Positions 7,272-50,367 of a stretch of 64,000 nucleotides of DNA are shown here, one piece after another. The notes beneath the pieces were generated by a model that had not been told where the DNA came from, made no database searches, and saw only the letters and a program-made list of their open reading frames with translations. The stretch lies in NCBI RefSeq assembly GCF_055900595.2, contig NZ_CM148325.1; one strand, written 5' to 3'. Position numbers and translations under genes: made by a program. Each line of letters starts with the position of its first letter. The stretch's first letter is position 1.

Positions 7272-7479
7272 AATTTTTCCTGAAGGGTGCGCTATCAAAA
7301 CGCAAAAATGTTAACGAACTGGGATTTTAGTTAACCTTGCAGCGACAATTTTTGATTTAAGGCAGTTAAAGTTGTATTGGTGGTAGCAGCAATTTCATAT
7401 GGAATTGTTGATTTATACCGCTATGTTATTTTTCTGATATGGCAAAATAGGATGATTGTTGAAACAGGGAGTAAAACTC

Positions 7480-8004
7480 GTGTTGGATAAACTGCGTTCC
7501 CGTATTGTGCATTTGGGGCCATCTCTGTTGAGTGTACCGGTAAAACTGACGCCATTTGCGCTAAAACGCCAGGTTCTTGAGCAGGTCTTAAGCTGGCAAT
7601 TCCGCCAGGCGCTGGATGATGGCGAGCTGGAGTTTCTTGAAGGGCGCCGGTTAAGTATTCATGTGCGTGATATTGACCTGCAATGGTTTACCTCGGTGGT
7701 GAATGGCAAACTGGTCGTTAGCCAGAACGCGCAAGCTGATGTGAGTTTTAGTGCCGACGCCAGCGATCTGCTGATGATTGCGGCGCGTAAACAAGATCCG
7801 GACACGCTCTTCTTCCAGCGTCGGCTGGTGATTGAAGGCGATACGGAGCTGGGGCTGTATGTGAAAAACCTGATGGACGCCATTGAACTGGAGCAAATGC
7901 CGAAAGCCTTACGCATGATGCTGCTGCAACTGGCGGATTTTGTTGAGGCGGGAATGAAAACCGCGCCTGAAACCAAACAGACATCGGTAGGTGAACCATG
8001 CTAA
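7480..8004 (+). CDS. ubiT: SCP2-domain protein UbiT (174 aa)
   Basis: Translation recognised as YhbT/UbiT; GTG start at 7480 preceded by GGGAG; divergent from ubiUV. Confidence 0.8.
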   Translation: MLDKLRSRIVHLGPSLLSVPVKLTPFALKRQVLEQVLSWQFRQALDDGELEFLEGRRLSIHVRDIDLQWFTSVVNGKLVVSQNAQADVSFSADASDLLMIAARKQDPDTLFFQRRLVIEGDTELGLYVKNLMDAIELEQMPKALRMMLLQLADFVEAGMKTAPETKQTSVGEPC

Positions 8005-8501
8005 TTCGAGTAGAAATTCCCATTGATGCGCCGGGTATTGATGCCCTGCTGCGTCGTTCATTCGAAAGTGATGCGGAAGCGAAGCTGGTTCACGATCTGC
8101 GTGAAGATGGCTTTCTGACGCTGGGGCTGGTGGCGACAGATGACGAAGGTCAGGTCATTGGCTATGTGGCATTCAGTCCGGTTGATGTGCAGGGCGAAGA
8201 CCTGCAATGGGTCGGCATGGCACCGCTGGCGGTAGATGAAAAATACCGTGGACAGGGGCTGGCACGCCAACTGGTCTATGAAGGACTCGATTCGCTTAAT
8301 GAGTTCGGCTATGCCGCAGTGGTGACGCTGGGCGATCCGGCGCTGTACAGTCGTTTCGGCTTTGAGCTGGCGGCGCATCACGATCTGCGTTGCCGCTGGC
8401 CGGGCACTGAAAGCGCCTTCCAGGTACATCGTTTAGCGGATGACGCGCTGAACGGCGTAACCGGTCTGGTTGAGTATCACGAGCACTTCAATCGCTTTTA
8501 A
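7998..8501 (+). CDS. yhbS: GNAT-family N-acetyltransferase (167 aa)
   Basis: Translation recognised as YhbS; start overlaps ubiT stop by 7 nt; 3' end overlaps yhbQ 3' end (convergent). Confidence 0.85.
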
Positions 8502-8790
8502 TCTTTGGGGTTTGCAGGCTGCTTATCAGCTCTGCAAACCCTGAGCCTTCCGCTACCAGACGTTCTTTTTGCCGTTTGGTCAGTTGTTTAACGCGATATT
8601 CCGCCCGTAGTGCCAGCGAACGGTCGCCCACTGGCGCGGAAAATGCCAGCGTCAGTTCACCTTTCCCACGCAGTGCTTTTGCGCCTTTGCCGCTTTGATG
8701 TTGCTGATAGCGGCGTTCGACATCCGTGGTGATCCCGGTATAAAGCTTATTGTCGGCGGTACGGATCAAGTAAAGAAACCAGGGTGTCAT
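8488..8790 (-). CDS. yhbQ: GIY-YIG domain protein (100 aa)
   Basis: GIY-YIG signature [23 protein letters not shown] in translation; start placed at MTPWFLY (8790); ORF track also allows 8802. Confidence 0.8.
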
Positions 8791-8840
8791 CGTCTGCGTC
8801 ACATGTTAAGGTCAGGCCCACAGTATAAAAGAGAACAGCT

Positions 8841-9263
8841 ATGGAAACACTCACCGCCATCAGCCGTTGGCTGGCAAAACAACATGTTGTCACTTGGTGT
8901 GTGCAGCAGGAAGGGGAATTGTGGTGCGCCAATGCCTTTTATCTTTTTGATGCACAGAAAGTTGCCTTCTACATTTTGACGGAGGAAAAAACGCGTCACG
9001 CGCAGATGAGTGGGCCGCAGGCGGCAGTTGCTGGAACGGTAAACGGTCAGCCGAAAACGGTAGCGTTAATTCGCGGCGTGCAGTTTAAAGGTGAGATCCG
9101 CAGACTGGAAGGTGAGGAAAGCGACTTTGCGCGCAAGGCGTATAATCGTCGCTTTCCGGTTGCCAGAATGCTGTCGGCGCCGGTGTGGGAAATCCGGCTT
9201 GATGAAATCAAATTCACTGACAACACGCTGGGCTTTGGTAAAAAAATGATTTGGCTACGTAGC

Positions 9264-9284
<21 letters not shown>
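8841..9284 (+). CDS. yhbP: Uncharacterised protein YhbP, pyridoxamine-5'-phosphate-oxidase-like fold (147 aa)
   Basis: Translation recognised as YhbP. Confidence 0.85.
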
Positions 9285-9820
<536 letters not shown>

Positions 9821-9821
9821 T

Positions 9822-9872
<51 letters not shown>

Positions 9873-9899
9873 GGGAGCGCAAGGCAGACAATTCTGTAA

Positions 9900-10545
<646 letters not shown>

Positions 10546-10617
10546 TTATTCCCAAGAATTGATAGTGAGCGTAATATTCACGCGCTTAATTATCATAATT
10601 TATTCCTGGGGAATGCT

Positions 10618-11658
10618 ATGACTGGTCAGTCTTCATCTCAGGCGGCAACGCCCATTCAGTGGTGGAAACCCGCGCTTTTCTTTCTCGTTGTCATTGCCGG
10701 ACTTTGGTATGTGAAATGGCAACCTTACTACGGTAAAGCCTTTACTGCCGCCGAAACTCACAGTATCGGTAAATCTATCCTTGCGCAGGCGGATGCTAAT
10801 CCGTGGCAAGCTGCGTGGGACTACGCGATGGTCTATTTCCTCGCGGTATGGAAAGCGGCGGTACTGGGGGTGATCCTCGGGTCGTTGATTCAGGTGCTGA
10901 TCCCTCGTGACTGGCTGCTACGCACGCTGGGGCAATCGCGCTTTCGCGGCACGCTGCTGGGAACGCTGTTTTCGCTGCCGGGCATGATGTGTACTTGCTG
11001 TGCGGCACCGGTCGCGGCGGGGATGCGTCGCCAACAGGTGTCGATGGGCGGGGCGCTGGCATTCTGGATGGGCAATCCGTTGTTAAACCCGGCGACGCTG
11101 GTGTTTATGGGTTTTGTCCTCGGCTGGGGCTTTGCGGCGATTCGTCTGGTGGCGGGACTGGTGATGGTGTTGCTGATTGCGACCCTGGTGCAAAAATGGG
11201 TGCGTGAAACACCGCAAACACAGGCACCGGTCGAAATTGACATGCCGGAAGTGCAGGGCGGATTCTTTAGCCGCTGGGGTAGGGCGCTATGGACGCTTTT
11301 CTGGAGTACGATCCCGGTATATATCCTTGCCGTACTGGCGTTGGGTGCCGCTCGCGTCTGGTTATTCCCCCATGCCGATGGTGCTGTCGATAACAGCCTG
11401 ATGTGGGTGATTGCGATGGCGGTAGCGGGATGCTTGTTTGTCATTCCCACGGCAGCAGAAATTCCGATTGTACAAACGATGATGCTGGCAGGTATGGGAA
11501 CCGCTCCGGCGCTGGCATTGTTGATGACGCTTCCTGCTGTAAGTTTGCCGTCGCTGATAATGTTGCGTAAAGCGTTCCCGGCGAAAGCCTTATGGCTGAC
11601 GGGTGCGATGGTGGCGGTGTCTGGTGTGATTGTCGGCGGGCTGGCGCTGTTGTTCTGA
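10618..11658 (+). CDS. yraQ: Inner-membrane permease YraQ (346 aa)
   Basis: Hydrophobic multi-pass protein; translation recognised as YraQ. Confidence 0.9.
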   Translation: MTGQSSSQAATPIQWWKPALFFLVVIAGLWYVKWQPYYGKAFTAAETHSIGKSILAQADANPWQAAWDYAMVYFLAVWKAAVLGVILGSLIQVLIPRDWLLRTLGQSRFRGTLLGTLFSLPGMMCTCCAAPVAAGMRRQQVSMGGALAFWMGNPLLNPATLVFMGFVLGWGFAAIRLVAGLVMVLLIATLVQKWVRETPQTQAPVEIDMPEVQGGFFSRWGRALWTLFWSTIPVYILAVLALGAARVWLFPHADGAVDNSLMWVIAMAVAGCLFVIPTAAEIPIVQTMMLAGMGTAPALALLMTLPAVSLPSLIMLRKAFPAKALWLTGAMVAVSGVIVGGLALLF

Positions 11659-13057: not shown

Positions 13058-13453
13058 TTATGAGTGGTCATTAAAGGCATCCTTAATCCACTCAACTTCA
13101 TTCCCGGTGAAGGCTACCACATCGAACCGGCAATCCACAGTATCAAAACTCCCATTATGACGCGCGAGCCACAAGCGGGCAGTCTGTAATAATTTGTGTT
13201 GTTTGCTGCGGGTCACACTGGCTGCCGCACCACCGTAAAGGGCTGAGCGGCGGTAACGCACCTCGACAAAAACGGTGGTCCTGCCTTCACGCATTATCAG
13301 ATCGATCTCGCCGCCACGCTCGTTCACGTTAGCGGCGACAAACCGCAGTCCTTTGCTCTCCAGCCAGCGACGCGCTTGTGCTTCCCACGCATCGCCGGTC
13401 TGTTTAGTGGTTAACTGGCGGGGACTACCTGACCTTGTTGGTACTGTAGCCAT
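13058..13453 (-). CDS. yraN: UPF0102 family protein YraN (131 aa)
   Basis: Translation recognised as YraN; annotated start overlaps the lpoA 3' end by 43 nt. Confidence 0.8.
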
Positions 13454-27102: not shown

Positions 27103-27912
27103 ATGAGTAATACCGACGCTTCAGGCGAGAAGCGAGTGACAGGCACCAGCGAGCGACGAGAACAAATCATTCAGCGCCTGCGACAGCAAGGGAGTGTGCA
27201 GGTTAACGATCTGTCGGCATTGTATGGCGTATCTACTGTGACGATCCGCAACGATCTGGCGTTTCTGGAAAAGCAGGGGATCGCTGTGCGGGCCTATGGC
27301 GGCGCGTTGATCTGCGATAGCACGACGCCGTCAGTCGAGCCATCAGTGGAAGATAAAAGCGCGCTGAACACTGCGATGAAACGCAGCGTTGCGAAAGCTG
27401 CCGTTGAGTTGATTCAGCCAGGTCATCGGGTGATCCTCGATTCCGGGACCACCACGTTTGAGATTGCTCGTCTGATGCGCAAGCACACTGACGTAATTGC
27501 GATGACCAATGGTATGAACGTAGCCAATGCACTGCTGGAAGCAGAAGGCGTTGAACTTCTTATGACCGGCGGGCATCTGCGGCGTCAGTCGCAATCTTTT
27601 TACGGCGATCAGGCTGAACAATCGCTACAAAATTACCACTTCGATATGCTGTTTCTTGGCGTAGATGCTATTGATCTGGAGCGCGGCGTCAGCACGCATA
27701 ATGAAGATGAAGCCCGTTTAAACCGTCGGATGTGCGAAGTTGCGGAACGGATCATCGTGGTCACCGATTCCAGTAAGTTCAACCGTTCCAGTTTACATAA
27801 GATCATTGATACTCAACGTATCGACATGATCATTGTTGATGAAGGCATTCCTGCGGATAGTCTGGAAGGACTGCGAAAGGCTGGGGTTGAAGTGATTCTG
27901 GTCGGGGAGTGA
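27103..27912 (+). CDS. agaR: DeoR-family transcriptional repressor AgaR (269 aa)
   Basis: Translation recognised as AgaR. Confidence 0.9.
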
Positions 27913-27966
27913 GAAATGGTGCCCGCTGGTCAACACCAATGCGTTCGGCGGGCATTGTGAACACCA

Positions 27967-28431
27967 TCAATGGTTTTCTTCTGTCTCTTGGGTGAGGCTT
28001 TCCCAGTCGGCAGGAGGATGTCCTCTTTTTAACATTTTACTGAATACGGTATAGGCATCTGTTTTTTTACCGTAGGTGCGCAGCGTGTTTTCATCGTTCA
28101 TCCATCCCAGAATGATGACTTTCTCTTTTTCACTGTAACGAAAGAAGAGACGATAGCGACCAGCACCAAATTTTACCCGTGACCAGTCTTTATTTTTCCC
28201 AGAGCCTAACGACTTGCCATGACGGAATGCCGGTGATGATGGATTGACCGTGATATGCTCCTCAATCACTTTATGGACCACCGCCAATAACTTTGTGGCA
28301 GCTTTTCTCTGATAATTTTCAGGATCTTTTCCCTTTAATGCCTCGACTTCGGCAACTAAAGCATCGTAGGTTTCCTGAAAACAGGGATGAGCATATAGCG
28401 CCCAACCATTAACCCTTTGTGGAAAATCCAT
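27967..28431 (-). CDS. yhaV: Toxin YhaV, ribosome-dependent mRNA interferase (154 aa)
   Basis: Translation recognised as YhaV; ATG overlaps the prlF stop (TAATG). Confidence 0.9.
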   Translation of the reverse strand: MDFPQRVNGWALYAHPCFQETYDALVAEVEALKGKDPENYQRKAATKLLAVVHKVIEEHITVNPSSPAFRHGKSLGSGKNKDWSRVKFGAGRYRLFFRYSEKEKVIILGWMNDENTLRTYGKKTDAYTVFSKMLKRGHPPADWESLTQETEENH

Positions 28432-48759: not shown

Positions 48760-50070
48760 ATGTTTGATTCGACTTTAAATCCGTTATGGCAGCGTTACAT
48801 CCTCGCCGTTCAGGAGGAAGTAAAACCGGCGCTGGGATGTACTGAACCAATTTCACTGGCGCTGGCGGCGGCGGTTGCTGCGGCAAAACTGGAAGGTCCG
48901 GTTGAACGTGTAGAAGCCTGGGTTTCGCCAAATCTGATGAAGAACGGTCTGGGCGTCACCGTTCCCGGCACGGGAATGGTGGGGCTGCCGATTGCGGCGG
49001 CGCTGGGCGCGTTAGGTGGTAATGCCAATGCCGGGCTGGAGGTGCTGAAAGACGCAACGGCGCAGGCAATTGCCGATGCCAAAGCACTGCTGGCGGCGGG
49101 GAAAGTCTCGGTTAAGATCCAGGAACCTTGCGATGAAATCCTCTTCTCACGCGCCAAAGTCTGGAGCGGTGAGAAGTGGGCGTGTGTCACCATCGTTGGC
49201 GGGCATACCAACATTGTGCATATTGAGACGCACAATGGCGTGGTGTTTACCCAGCAGGCCAGTGTGGCAGAGGGCGAGCAAGAGTCGCCACTGACGGTGC
49301 TCTCCAGAACGACGCTGGCTGAGATCCTGAAGTTCGTCAATGAAGTGCCGTTTTCGGCGATCCGCTTTATTCTCGATTCCGCGAAGTTAAATTGCGCGTT
49401 ATCGCAGGAAGGTTTGAGTGGTAACTGGGGGCTACATATTGGCGCGACGCTGGAGAAACAGTGTGCACGCGGTTTGCTGGCGAAAGATCTCTCTTCATCC
49501 ATTGTGATTCGTACCAGCGCGGCATCCGATGCGCGTATGGGCGGTGCTACGCTTCCGGCAATGAGTAACTCCGGCTCGGGTAACCAGGGGATCACTGCAA
49601 CAATGCCTGTGGTGGTGGTAGCAGAACACTTCGGGGCCGATGATGAACGGCTGGCGCGTGCGCTGATGCTTTCGCATTTGAGCGCGATTTACATCCATAA
49701 CCAGTTACCGCGTTTGTCTGCGCTTTGTGCCGCAACGACCGCAGCAATGGGGGCCGCCGCCGGGATGGCATGGCTGGTGGATGGGCGTTATGAAACCATC
49801 TCGATGGCGATCAGTAGTATGATCGGCGATGTCAGCGGCATGATTTGCGATGGTGCGTCCAACAGCTGCGCGATGAAGGTTTCGACCAGTGCTTCGGCTG
49901 CGTGGAAAGCAGTGTTAATGGCGCTGGATGATACCGCTGTGACCGGTAATGAAGGTATTGTGGCGCATGATGTTGAGCAGTCGATTGCCAACCTGTGTGC
50001 GCTGGCAAGCCATTCGATGCAGCAAACGGATCGGCAGATTATCGAGATTATGGCGAGCAAGGCCAGATAA
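48760..50070 (+). CDS. cyuA: L-cysteine desulfidase CyuA (YhaM; 436 aa)
   Basis: Translation recognised as YhaM. Confidence 0.9.
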
Positions 50071-50084
50071 ACGCCTGGTTTTGG

Positions 50085-50195
<111 letters not shown>

Positions 50196-50202
50196 CTTGT
50201 CT

Positions 50203-50367
50203 TTACGCGGTAGCTTCATCCTCGGCTAAACGCGTTTCAGCATCCGCGACAATGGCTTCCAGTTCGCTCAACATCTCTTCATAGCCAAAATTATTGGCGG
50301 TGCGAGCCGGTTCCTTCGCCACCACGGGCTTCACCGGCTGACGCTTTTTGGCCGATTTTTTACTCAT
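50203..50367 (-). CDS. yhaL: Small protein YhaL (54 aa; MSKKSAKKRQPVKPVVAKEPARTANNFGYEEMLSELEAIVADAETRLAEDEATA)
   Basis: Not in the ORF track (under 60 aa); ATG at 50367 with AGGGAG SD; 22 bp upstream of yhaK on the same strand. Confidence 0.6.
   Translation of the reverse strand: MSKKSAKKRQPVKPVVAKEPARTANNFGYEEMLSELEAIVADAETRLAEDEATA

Follow-up and report, generated by a model that had tools for sequence, protein, structure and literature searches.

Between convergent genes, bidirectional intrinsic terminators were reportedly described by Ju and colleagues in 2019. Convergent overlaps of prokaryotic genes arise through the loss of a stop codon, after which the frame reads on into the neighbour (PMC2174442; PMC4161906). 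In E. coli, the number of such overlaps between coding sequences is given as 58 (PMC2174442) to 75 (PMC4161906), and a rho-independent terminator is predicted for only about 20% of the genes in them (PMC2174442). Excludons, a concept from Listeria and S. aureus that Sanmartin et al. (PMC12288877) applied to E. coli, are neighbours on opposite strands with overlapping 3' transcript ends. Finally, antisense read-through can be terminated by Rho (PMC7815308).

Here we describe two adjacent overlaps, yhbS/yhbQ and yhbP/yhbO, in a 64-kb window, by which we mean the whole stretch of DNA that was analysed. As in the convergent overlaps reported before (Lillo & Krakauer 2007; Huvet & Stumpf 2014), these are short, join one 3' end to another and place each stop in the last codons of the partner. 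A variant seen in three Citrobacter is the classic 4-nt TTAA form, and intrinsic terminators are present in a minority of such genes. In contrast, the 14 and 21 nt found here exceed the modal 4 nt, and the history of the overlaps can be read at this locus from the division into anchor and passenger genes, an either/or rare leucine codon and the repeated loss of yhbO.

The comparison with the other systems gives a mixed picture. Opposite-strand neighbours with overlapping 3' transcript ends are shared with excludons, but a spacer averaging 95 nt separates the genes in most catalogued E. coli excludons, whereas at this locus the overlap extends to the coding sequences. Excludons are further defined by reciprocal expression, through interference and RNase III decay, whereas these two pairs are known from transcript overlap. 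With Rho termination of antisense read-through (PMC7815308) the locus shares a BCM-sensitive drop in coverage antisense to yhbO and a 3' UTR with more C than G. Unlike a mapped rut site, the yhbP site is a genome-wide call with 800-nt resolution. In terms of bidirectional intrinsic terminators, the common features are convergent genes and a strong symmetric hairpin at the yhbS/yhbQ boundary, but this hairpin comes without A-tract/U-tract or mapped 3' ends, lies within coding sequence and is not conserved.

Both the coding overlaps, in reference annotation, and the transcript overlaps, published in 2025 in a catalogue of convergent excludons, are already known, and beyond housekeeping they matter little. 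What is added here is a worked example of how an overlap persists, in which conserved codons at the C-terminal end of one gene keep the stop of the other, the passenger, where it is. We consider it likely that both overlaps are ancient tail-to-tail compaction, frozen by the coding constraint of one partner, with the read-through handled by Rho and RNase III.

Gene layout and the two coding overlaps

The genes and junctions of the locus are as follows.

7480..8004, plus strand: ubiT (yhbT), which opens the ubiT-yhbS transcription unit (RefSeq, list of open reading frames)
7998..8501, plus strand: yhbS, GNAT acetyltransferase, 167 aa, stop TAA
8488..8501: yhbS/yhbQ coding overlap, 14 nt, TCAATCGCTTTTAA, with both stop codons inside
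8488..8790, minus strand: yhbQ, GIY-YIG nuclease, 100 aa, stop TGA
8791..8840: divergent yhbQ-yhbP intergenic region, 50 nt
8841..9284, plus strand: yhbP, YhbP-family protein, 147 aa, stop TAA
9264..9284: yhbP/yhbO coding overlap, 21 nt, TCAGGCACCGAGCAGGCGTAA, antisense codon-on-codon, with both stops inside
9264..9782, minus strand: yhbO, DJ-1/PfpI deglycase, 172 aa from the annotated start, stop TGA
9910..10545, plus strand: yraR, on the same strand as yhbP

The 3.2-kb E. coli region around the overlaps matched 5424 of 5426 complete genomes, with the top matches at 99.9%. RefSeq gives identical coordinates for all four overlapping genes in the near-identical strain E200086. In K-12 MG1655 (RefSeq), the equivalent overlaps are those of yhbQ (3299966-3300268) with yhbS (3300255-3300758) and of yhbO (3298974-3299492) with yhbP (3299472-3299915). 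The lengths of 14 and 21 nt given in the preliminary description are confirmed by the list of open reading frames, the raw sequence and RefSeq.

As for the gene products, three of the four labels in that description are borne out by Pfam. The GNAT domain covers residues 19-124 of the 167 in YhbS, GIY-YIG covers residues 4-76 of the 100 in YhbQ, and DJ-1/PfpI covers residues 3-168 of the 172 in YhbO. The fourth label, an FMN-binding fold for YhbP, stands at annotation level only (the K-12 entry reads “putative FMN binding protein”). YhbP has no match in Pfam and its sole family match is the NCBIfam YhbP equivalog model; a weak PNPOx_N match was found in a Xenorhabdus YhbP homologue. With their domain or family matches and orthologues in 80 species, both open reading frames of each pair are real genes.

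Some details of the surrounding layout are also of use. The ubiT 3' end overlaps the yhbS start by 7 nt. The yhbQ and yhbP promoters must overlap or sit within a neighbouring gene, because the divergent spacer is just 50 nt, and an AT-rich motif in this spacer is kept across genera. For yhbQ, the mechanical reading frame begins with a GTG at 8802 and the annotated ATG is at 8790. Rare E. coli alleles of yhbQ are frameshifted and have longer tails.

Conservation of the overlaps and coding constraint

We compared 80 Enterobacteriaceae loci, one genome per species, which were found with YhbP as query. The four orthologues of each locus were placed by tblastn and each was extended to its stop codon; a few odd overlap values reflect a broken yhbO or an alignment running past a stop. 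Both overlaps are kept across the family, a point that the preliminary description had left for checking. About 76 of the 80 species have a yhbS/yhbQ overlap of 14 nt, a count that, like the 56 of 56 given below, does not consist of independent observations because the species are phylogenetically related. This overlap is 4 nt in three Citrobacter, and a gap never occurs. For yhbP/yhbO, the overlap is 21 or 15 nt in every species of the set with an intact yhbO, the 15-nt form being that of Kosakonia, Silvania, Pseudescherichia and some Leclercia.

At the first junction, the yhbQ stop TGA lies opposite a TCA that spans the yhbS codons for Phe-Asn (TTC AAT), and the yhbS stop TAA faces the yhbQ codons for Ile-Lys. 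Across species the yhbQ stop (TGA/TAA) remains the complement of TCA/TTA over this Phe-Asn pair (TTY-AAY), and its position is therefore fixed by YhbS. All 74 complete YhbS orthologues have 167 aa, and the residues of the C-terminus (...EYHxHFNRF*) are 74-100% conserved. YhbQ residues 77-100 are beyond the GIY-YIG domain and form a tail of variable length that is 24-88% conserved. Among orthologues YhbQ ranges from 83 to 100 aa, and distant homologues align over approximately residues 2-90 only. In-frame indels in the yhbQ tail (-3, -12, -15 and -24 nt) all retain the 14-nt overlap. The lone out-of-frame class, found in the three Citrobacter, stops at a palindromic TTAA shared with the yhbS stop, which gives 4 nt.

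At the second junction, the yhbP stop TAA pairs with TTA, the yhbO codon for Leu167, and the yhbO stop TGA faces a yhbP Ser codon, TCA. Across species the yhbP stop (TAA/TAG) is the complement of a rare yhbO leucine codon, TTA/CTA. Exactly one of Leu167 and Leu169 is encoded by TTA/CTA in 56 of 56 species (Leu167 in 42, Leu169 in 14), with none or both never found; the background is 12% of 591 other yhbO leucine codons. By a reading of the window sequence, the yhbP frame would stay open for about 280 nt more if this codon were absent. Judged from the codons, this looks like purifying selection on a synonymous yhbO site that keeps YhbP short. YhbO has 172 aa in 55 of the 56 species, its C-terminal residues are 86-98% conserved, and the terminal REALRLLGA* sits within the DJ-1/PfpI domain. 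The last 6 or so residues of YhbP are variable, its tail is 21-64% conserved, and its length is 142-147 aa where yhbO is intact (140-147 overall).

These data show the same division of roles in each pair. One gene is the anchor, with a constrained C-terminus of fixed length (YhbS, YhbO), and the other the passenger, with a variable and apparently dispensable tail (YhbQ, YhbP). The passenger tail runs to the first in-frame stop antisense to the conserved codons of the anchor. Overlap lengths are constant across the Enterobacteriaceae (14 nt; 21 or 15 nt) because the protein sequence of the partner freezes the bases. Conservation is fully explained by protein-coding constraint and is therefore not evidence for regulation.

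The yhbO gene is missing beside yhbP in E. albertii, E. whittamii, the Citrobacter freundii complex, Trabulsiella and Kluyvera. Where it is absent or degraded, YhbP mostly has 140-142 aa, with 145-147 aa at a few loci (146 in three Citrobacter). The species lacking yhbO have the co-directional yraR 3-40 nt downstream of yhbP. Kluyvera is the exception, with another convergent gene after yhbP.

For more distant orthologues, a word-indexed protein search returned close relatives only, and a representative search with contig look-ups gave four useful outgroups. Two further look-ups led to another gene context, with yhbS not adjacent. One outgroup is an Erwiniaceae-like locus, from a cluster named Pantoea sp. 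IMH, where yhbS and yhbQ likewise share 14 nt and yhbO and yhbP stand 144 nt apart. The spacer between the latter two has a canonical hairpin terminator, GAGCCGGGttcgCCCGGCTT followed by a T-rich tail, directly after the yhbO stop. Sodalis praecaptivus has a yhbQ/yhbS overlap of 4 nt (TTAA) and no yhbP, Xenorhabdus has a yhbS/yhbQ overlap of 47 nt per gene calls, and in Vibrio cholerae the yhbQ homologue is found in an unrelated gene context. Three Enterobacterales lineages outside the family thus have the yhbS/yhbQ overlap, at 14, 4 and 47 nt, and this junction is accordingly old in the order. On the sequences compared, the yhbP/yhbO overlap is at least Enterobacteriaceae-wide. A word of caution follows for other loci: the deep conservation of an overlap alone is no evidence for antisense regulation, and the lineage with the spacer has a normal terminator.

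Terminators and transcripts at the junctions

In a pattern scan, neither overlap had a convincing intrinsic terminator within it or close by, and the 3 sites that matched were fewer than the 4.3 expected from shuffles. One terminator-like site on the minus strand, at 9003..8991, consists of GCGCGTGACGCGT and a T-run, lies in yhbP and was a candidate terminator for yhbO, the sole one downstream of a stop. In other genera neither its stem nor its T-run is preserved at synonymous positions, it is alike in species with and without yhbO, and it was rejected as a chance match. An Rfam scan of 7300-10700 gave nothing but a sub-threshold CRISPR-DR22 (E = 0.27) at 7412-7448.

The preliminary description had stated that there is no room for terminators and that the antisense overlap is obligatory. 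The first statement describes what is seen here, where none is evident, but it is too strong in general, because terminators can sit in the coding sequence of the partner. The second holds, since no mRNA can include its own stop without being antisense to the 3' end of the partner, and the published read-through agrees. With an intrinsic terminator absent at either junction, each mRNA is therefore expected to extend into the partner gene, where it would be antisense, C-rich and untranslated. Past the yhbP stop, C outnumbers G 1.4-2.3-fold in the first ~160 nt, so that a C-rich, G-poor RNA, as described upstream of the termination zone of Rho terminators, is present there. The 3' regions of yhbQ and yhbO likewise have more C than G; in yhbS this is weaker.

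Two regions of the window correspond to published RNA data.

9285..9700, plus strand: yhbP 3' read-through region, antisense to yhbO, with the published Rho peak inside
8500..8523: RNase III-generated sense/antisense duplex, 22 bp, K-12 UCUCCGGGGUUUGCAGACUGCU and its complement, mapped by sequence

All transcript evidence considered here is published data from K-12, which is a different strain from that of the window. Adams et al. (2021) report a Rho termination region at K-12 3299102 on the minus strand, antisense to yhbO (PMC7815308 Supp. file 2). The peak maps to approximately position 9654 of the window, ~370 nt past the yhbP stop. Reads upstream and downstream number 77/20 without BCM and 115/143 with BCM (PMC7815308). 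The score is 4.79 (p = 2.7e-9) and concerns the yhbP strand only (PMC7815308); it is computed over 800-nt windows, and the BCM effect could partly be yraR induction instead of read-through, because the downstream window takes in yraR on the same strand. The curated Term-seq data list no 3' ends within K-12 3298900-3300999 (PMC7815308 Supp. files 1 and 3), which low expression could explain. The SMRT-Cappable-seq supplements hold no entries for these genes.

The duplex at the first junction was captured with p19 by Huang et al. (2020) and is named “yhbQ yhbS”. It is perfectly paired, with 2-nt overhangs, and has read counts of 274 and 584 (PMC7373196 Table S3). It begins at the yhbS stop codon, and both abuts and enters the coding overlap. 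The signal is modest, at 3-7 RPM when 87% of all genes yield some dsRNA in these data (PMC7373196), and a separate promoter, not the partner mRNA, could be the source of the antisense strand. No yhbP/yhbO duplex is found among the rows listed in the tables of PMC7373196.

Transcript overlap of both pairs was reported with ExcludonFinder, where yhbO-yhbP and yhbQ-yhbS are among the 165 convergent excludons of MG1655 (Table 1; NAR 2025, PMC12288877). To qualify, transcripts had to overlap in 50% or more of the 58 RNA-seq samples (PMC12288877). Since their transcripts overlap, both pairs are convergent excludons by the operational definition, and are already catalogued as such. In a paper on YhbS as a suppressor of sRNA signalling, yhbQ and yhbP appear as deletion controls only and the overlaps are unmentioned.

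Under the compaction reading, the read-through RNAs would be ended by Rho, as the published data indicate for the yhbP side and as we infer for the others. When both strands are expressed, the resulting duplex would be cut by RNase III, which is suggested by the one published duplex at the yhbS/yhbQ junction.

The same RNA data can be read in a regulatory sense. The overlaps would then be kept for the mutual exclusion of the partners that convergent transcription brings about, with RNA polymerases colliding or occluding one another and RNase III cutting the 3' duplex. On this view yhbQ would fall when ubiT-yhbS is transcribed under anaerobiosis, for instance, and yhbP would fall when stress induces yhbO. 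The presence of both pairs in the E. coli excludome and the RNase III product at the yhbS/yhbQ junction are consistent with this, as are the arrangement kept in several Enterobacterales families and the synteny of excludon pairs, which as a class is above that of other neighbouring pairs (PMC12288877). However, p19 data failed to validate the convergent excludons of ExcludonFinder (PMC12288877), and reciprocal expression of either pair was not found in the literature examined. Coding constraint accounts in full for the conservation, yhbO was repeatedly lost with no visible compensation at yhbP, and in one lineage yhbO and yhbP are separated by the 144-nt spacer and its terminator. We therefore find it unlikely that the overlaps are retained for this function.

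Reciprocal regulation of the partners is possible, and is needless for explaining the conservation. If true, it would join a deglycase, a damage-response nuclease and an anaerobic ubiquinone accessory operon; nothing here indicates so.

The yhbS/yhbQ hairpin and other alternatives

One RNA structure stands out at the first junction.

8504..8545: hairpin, which starts 3 nt past the yhbS stop, within the yhbQ tail codons

This hairpin is very stable on both strands, at -26 kcal/mol (z = -4.4, with 0 of 200 shuffles equal). Given its stability and its start so close to the yhbS stop, it might act as a non-canonical bidirectional terminator, or as an element that positions polymerase collisions, and so set the 3' ends of both mRNAs. 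Wang et al. (10.1101/2022.10.23.513370) report that a stem-loop in nascent RNA positions head-on polymerase collisions at convergent gene boundaries, and the p19 duplex covers part of the 5' arm. We regard such a role as improbable. No U-tract follows the stem on either strand, the T-rich run being on the wrong side, and no Term-seq 3' end is reported at the site. A hairpin with a U-tract on both strands and discrete mapped 3' ends, which together mark bidirectional terminators, are not what these junctions present.

The hairpin is also specific to the Escherichia/Citrobacter/Salmonella lineage, and not conserved in the family. Using 39 tail-length-matched sequences, RNAalifold gave 0 pairs at the yhbS/yhbQ junction, and a 50-nt profile over 78 loci found no exceptional folding energy at either junction. 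In close Escherichia relatives (L004, L005) the stem has uncompensated mismatches, and its bases also encode the YhbQ tail. At the yhbP/yhbO junction no hairpin above background was found.

In a broader reading, the two overlaps and the divergent yhbQ-yhbP promoter region of 50 nt would act jointly, linking ubiT-yhbS, yhbQ, yhbP, yhbO and yraR in a chain of conserved reciprocal switches. Transcription from one end (anaerobic ubiT-yhbS or stress-induced yhbO) would pass alternating repression and derepression along the cluster, with colliding polymerases, RNase III and Rho as the relay. It is for this relay that the overlaps would be retained, and not as a by-product of compaction. We give very little credence to this chain.

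Lastly, the idea that the overlaps are unreal, with stops miscalled through a frame or sequencing error and the true ones further upstream, as the preliminary description had allowed for, can practically be dismissed: identical stops occur in K-12 and in the separately assembled genomes of 80 species, the reading frames persist through in-frame indels, and homology reaches the last residue of YhbS and YhbO.

As for how unusual two adjacent overlaps are, 2 of the 9 convergent junctions in the window overlap, and these are just the two described here; the other gaps measure 49-272 nt. Extrapolating from the window, we infer ~650 convergent junctions per genome, of which approximately one in ten would overlap. 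At this rate, p is therefore ~0.1 for an overlap at the next junction, and ~6 successive pairs are expected per genome. The single overlaps are real and conserved, and finding two of them adjacent is statistically unremarkable.

Variation at the yhbO end of the cluster

Where the Enterobacteriaceae have an overlap between yhbO and yhbP, a Pantoea sp. IMH-like genome carries a spacer of 144 nt (L092, the orthologous locus from this Erwiniaceae-like outgroup, positions 1819-1962), with a canonical intrinsic terminator immediately past the yhbO stop. In other lineages the partner gene itself is missing. We found yhbO gone from the locus in E. albertii, E. whittamii, the C. freundii complex, Kluyvera and Trabulsiella; the orthologous loci without yhbO downstream of yhbP include L007, L009, L008/L013/L015 and others, L057-L081 and L070-L071. 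Most of these lineages have yhbP directly upstream of the co-directional yraR. A REP-like sequence (GCCGGATAAGGCG...) takes the place of most of yhbO in Escherichia sp. MOD1-EC7003, located as follows:

L005:4445-4640, REP-like replacement of most of yhbO

In E. coli SCPM-O-B-8794 (L004), homology to yhbO ends at residue 155 and the frame continues, as would be expected after a frameshift or a truncation.

As for the YhbQ tail, it is frameshifted in the rare E. coli alleles P0007, P0040 and P0069, giving proteins of 104-117 aa that extend further antisense into yhbS. These rare longer alleles are consistent with a dispensable tail.

Transcription units around the overlaps

Two further features concern the 5' side of the overlapping genes:

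7998-8004, plus strand, co-directional ubiT/yhbS overlap, 7 nt
8791-8840, divergent yhbQ-yhbP intergenic region, 50 nt only

The first arrangement is also present in Sodalis, Pantoea-like and Xenorhabdus loci. Gene order and overlap suggest a single ubiT-yhbS transcription unit with translational coupling, in which case the end of the ubiT operon would be the yhbS 3' end. Further upstream, between ubiU and ubiT, a match to the Rfam family CRISPR-DR22 (7412-7448, minus strand) is sub-threshold, scoring 21.9 bits (E = 0.27) where the gathering score is 50, and is probably due to chance.

The divergent region contains an AT-rich element, which reads cagTATAAAag in Escherichia; most other genera carry a conserved ...ATGTTAAGGTGAACGCACCATAGCAT... 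instead. Since the spacer is so short, the predicted promoters must overlap or sit within the neighbouring gene, and the 5' ends of yhbQ and yhbP may therefore overlap too.

Lineage of the window and its other junctions

The region 7400-10600 has at least 99% identity to only 12 of the 5424 matching E. coli genomes, the remainder being at 95-99%, which places the window in one of the less common E. coli lineages. It is matched best by isolates from human stool, E200086 (Mali) among them.

Three other junctions were noted:

27912-27967, convergent agaR/yhaV junction, 54-nt gap
about 50070-50203, convergent cyuA/yhaL junction, 132-nt gap
13411-13453, co-directional lpoA/yraN overlap, 43 nt (RefSeq annotation)

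The ExcludonFinder list of convergent excludons in E. coli MG1655 (PMC12288877) includes the agaR/yhaV and cyuA/yhaL pairs as well. The lpoA/yraN overlap, as annotated, is unusually long for genes on the same strand.
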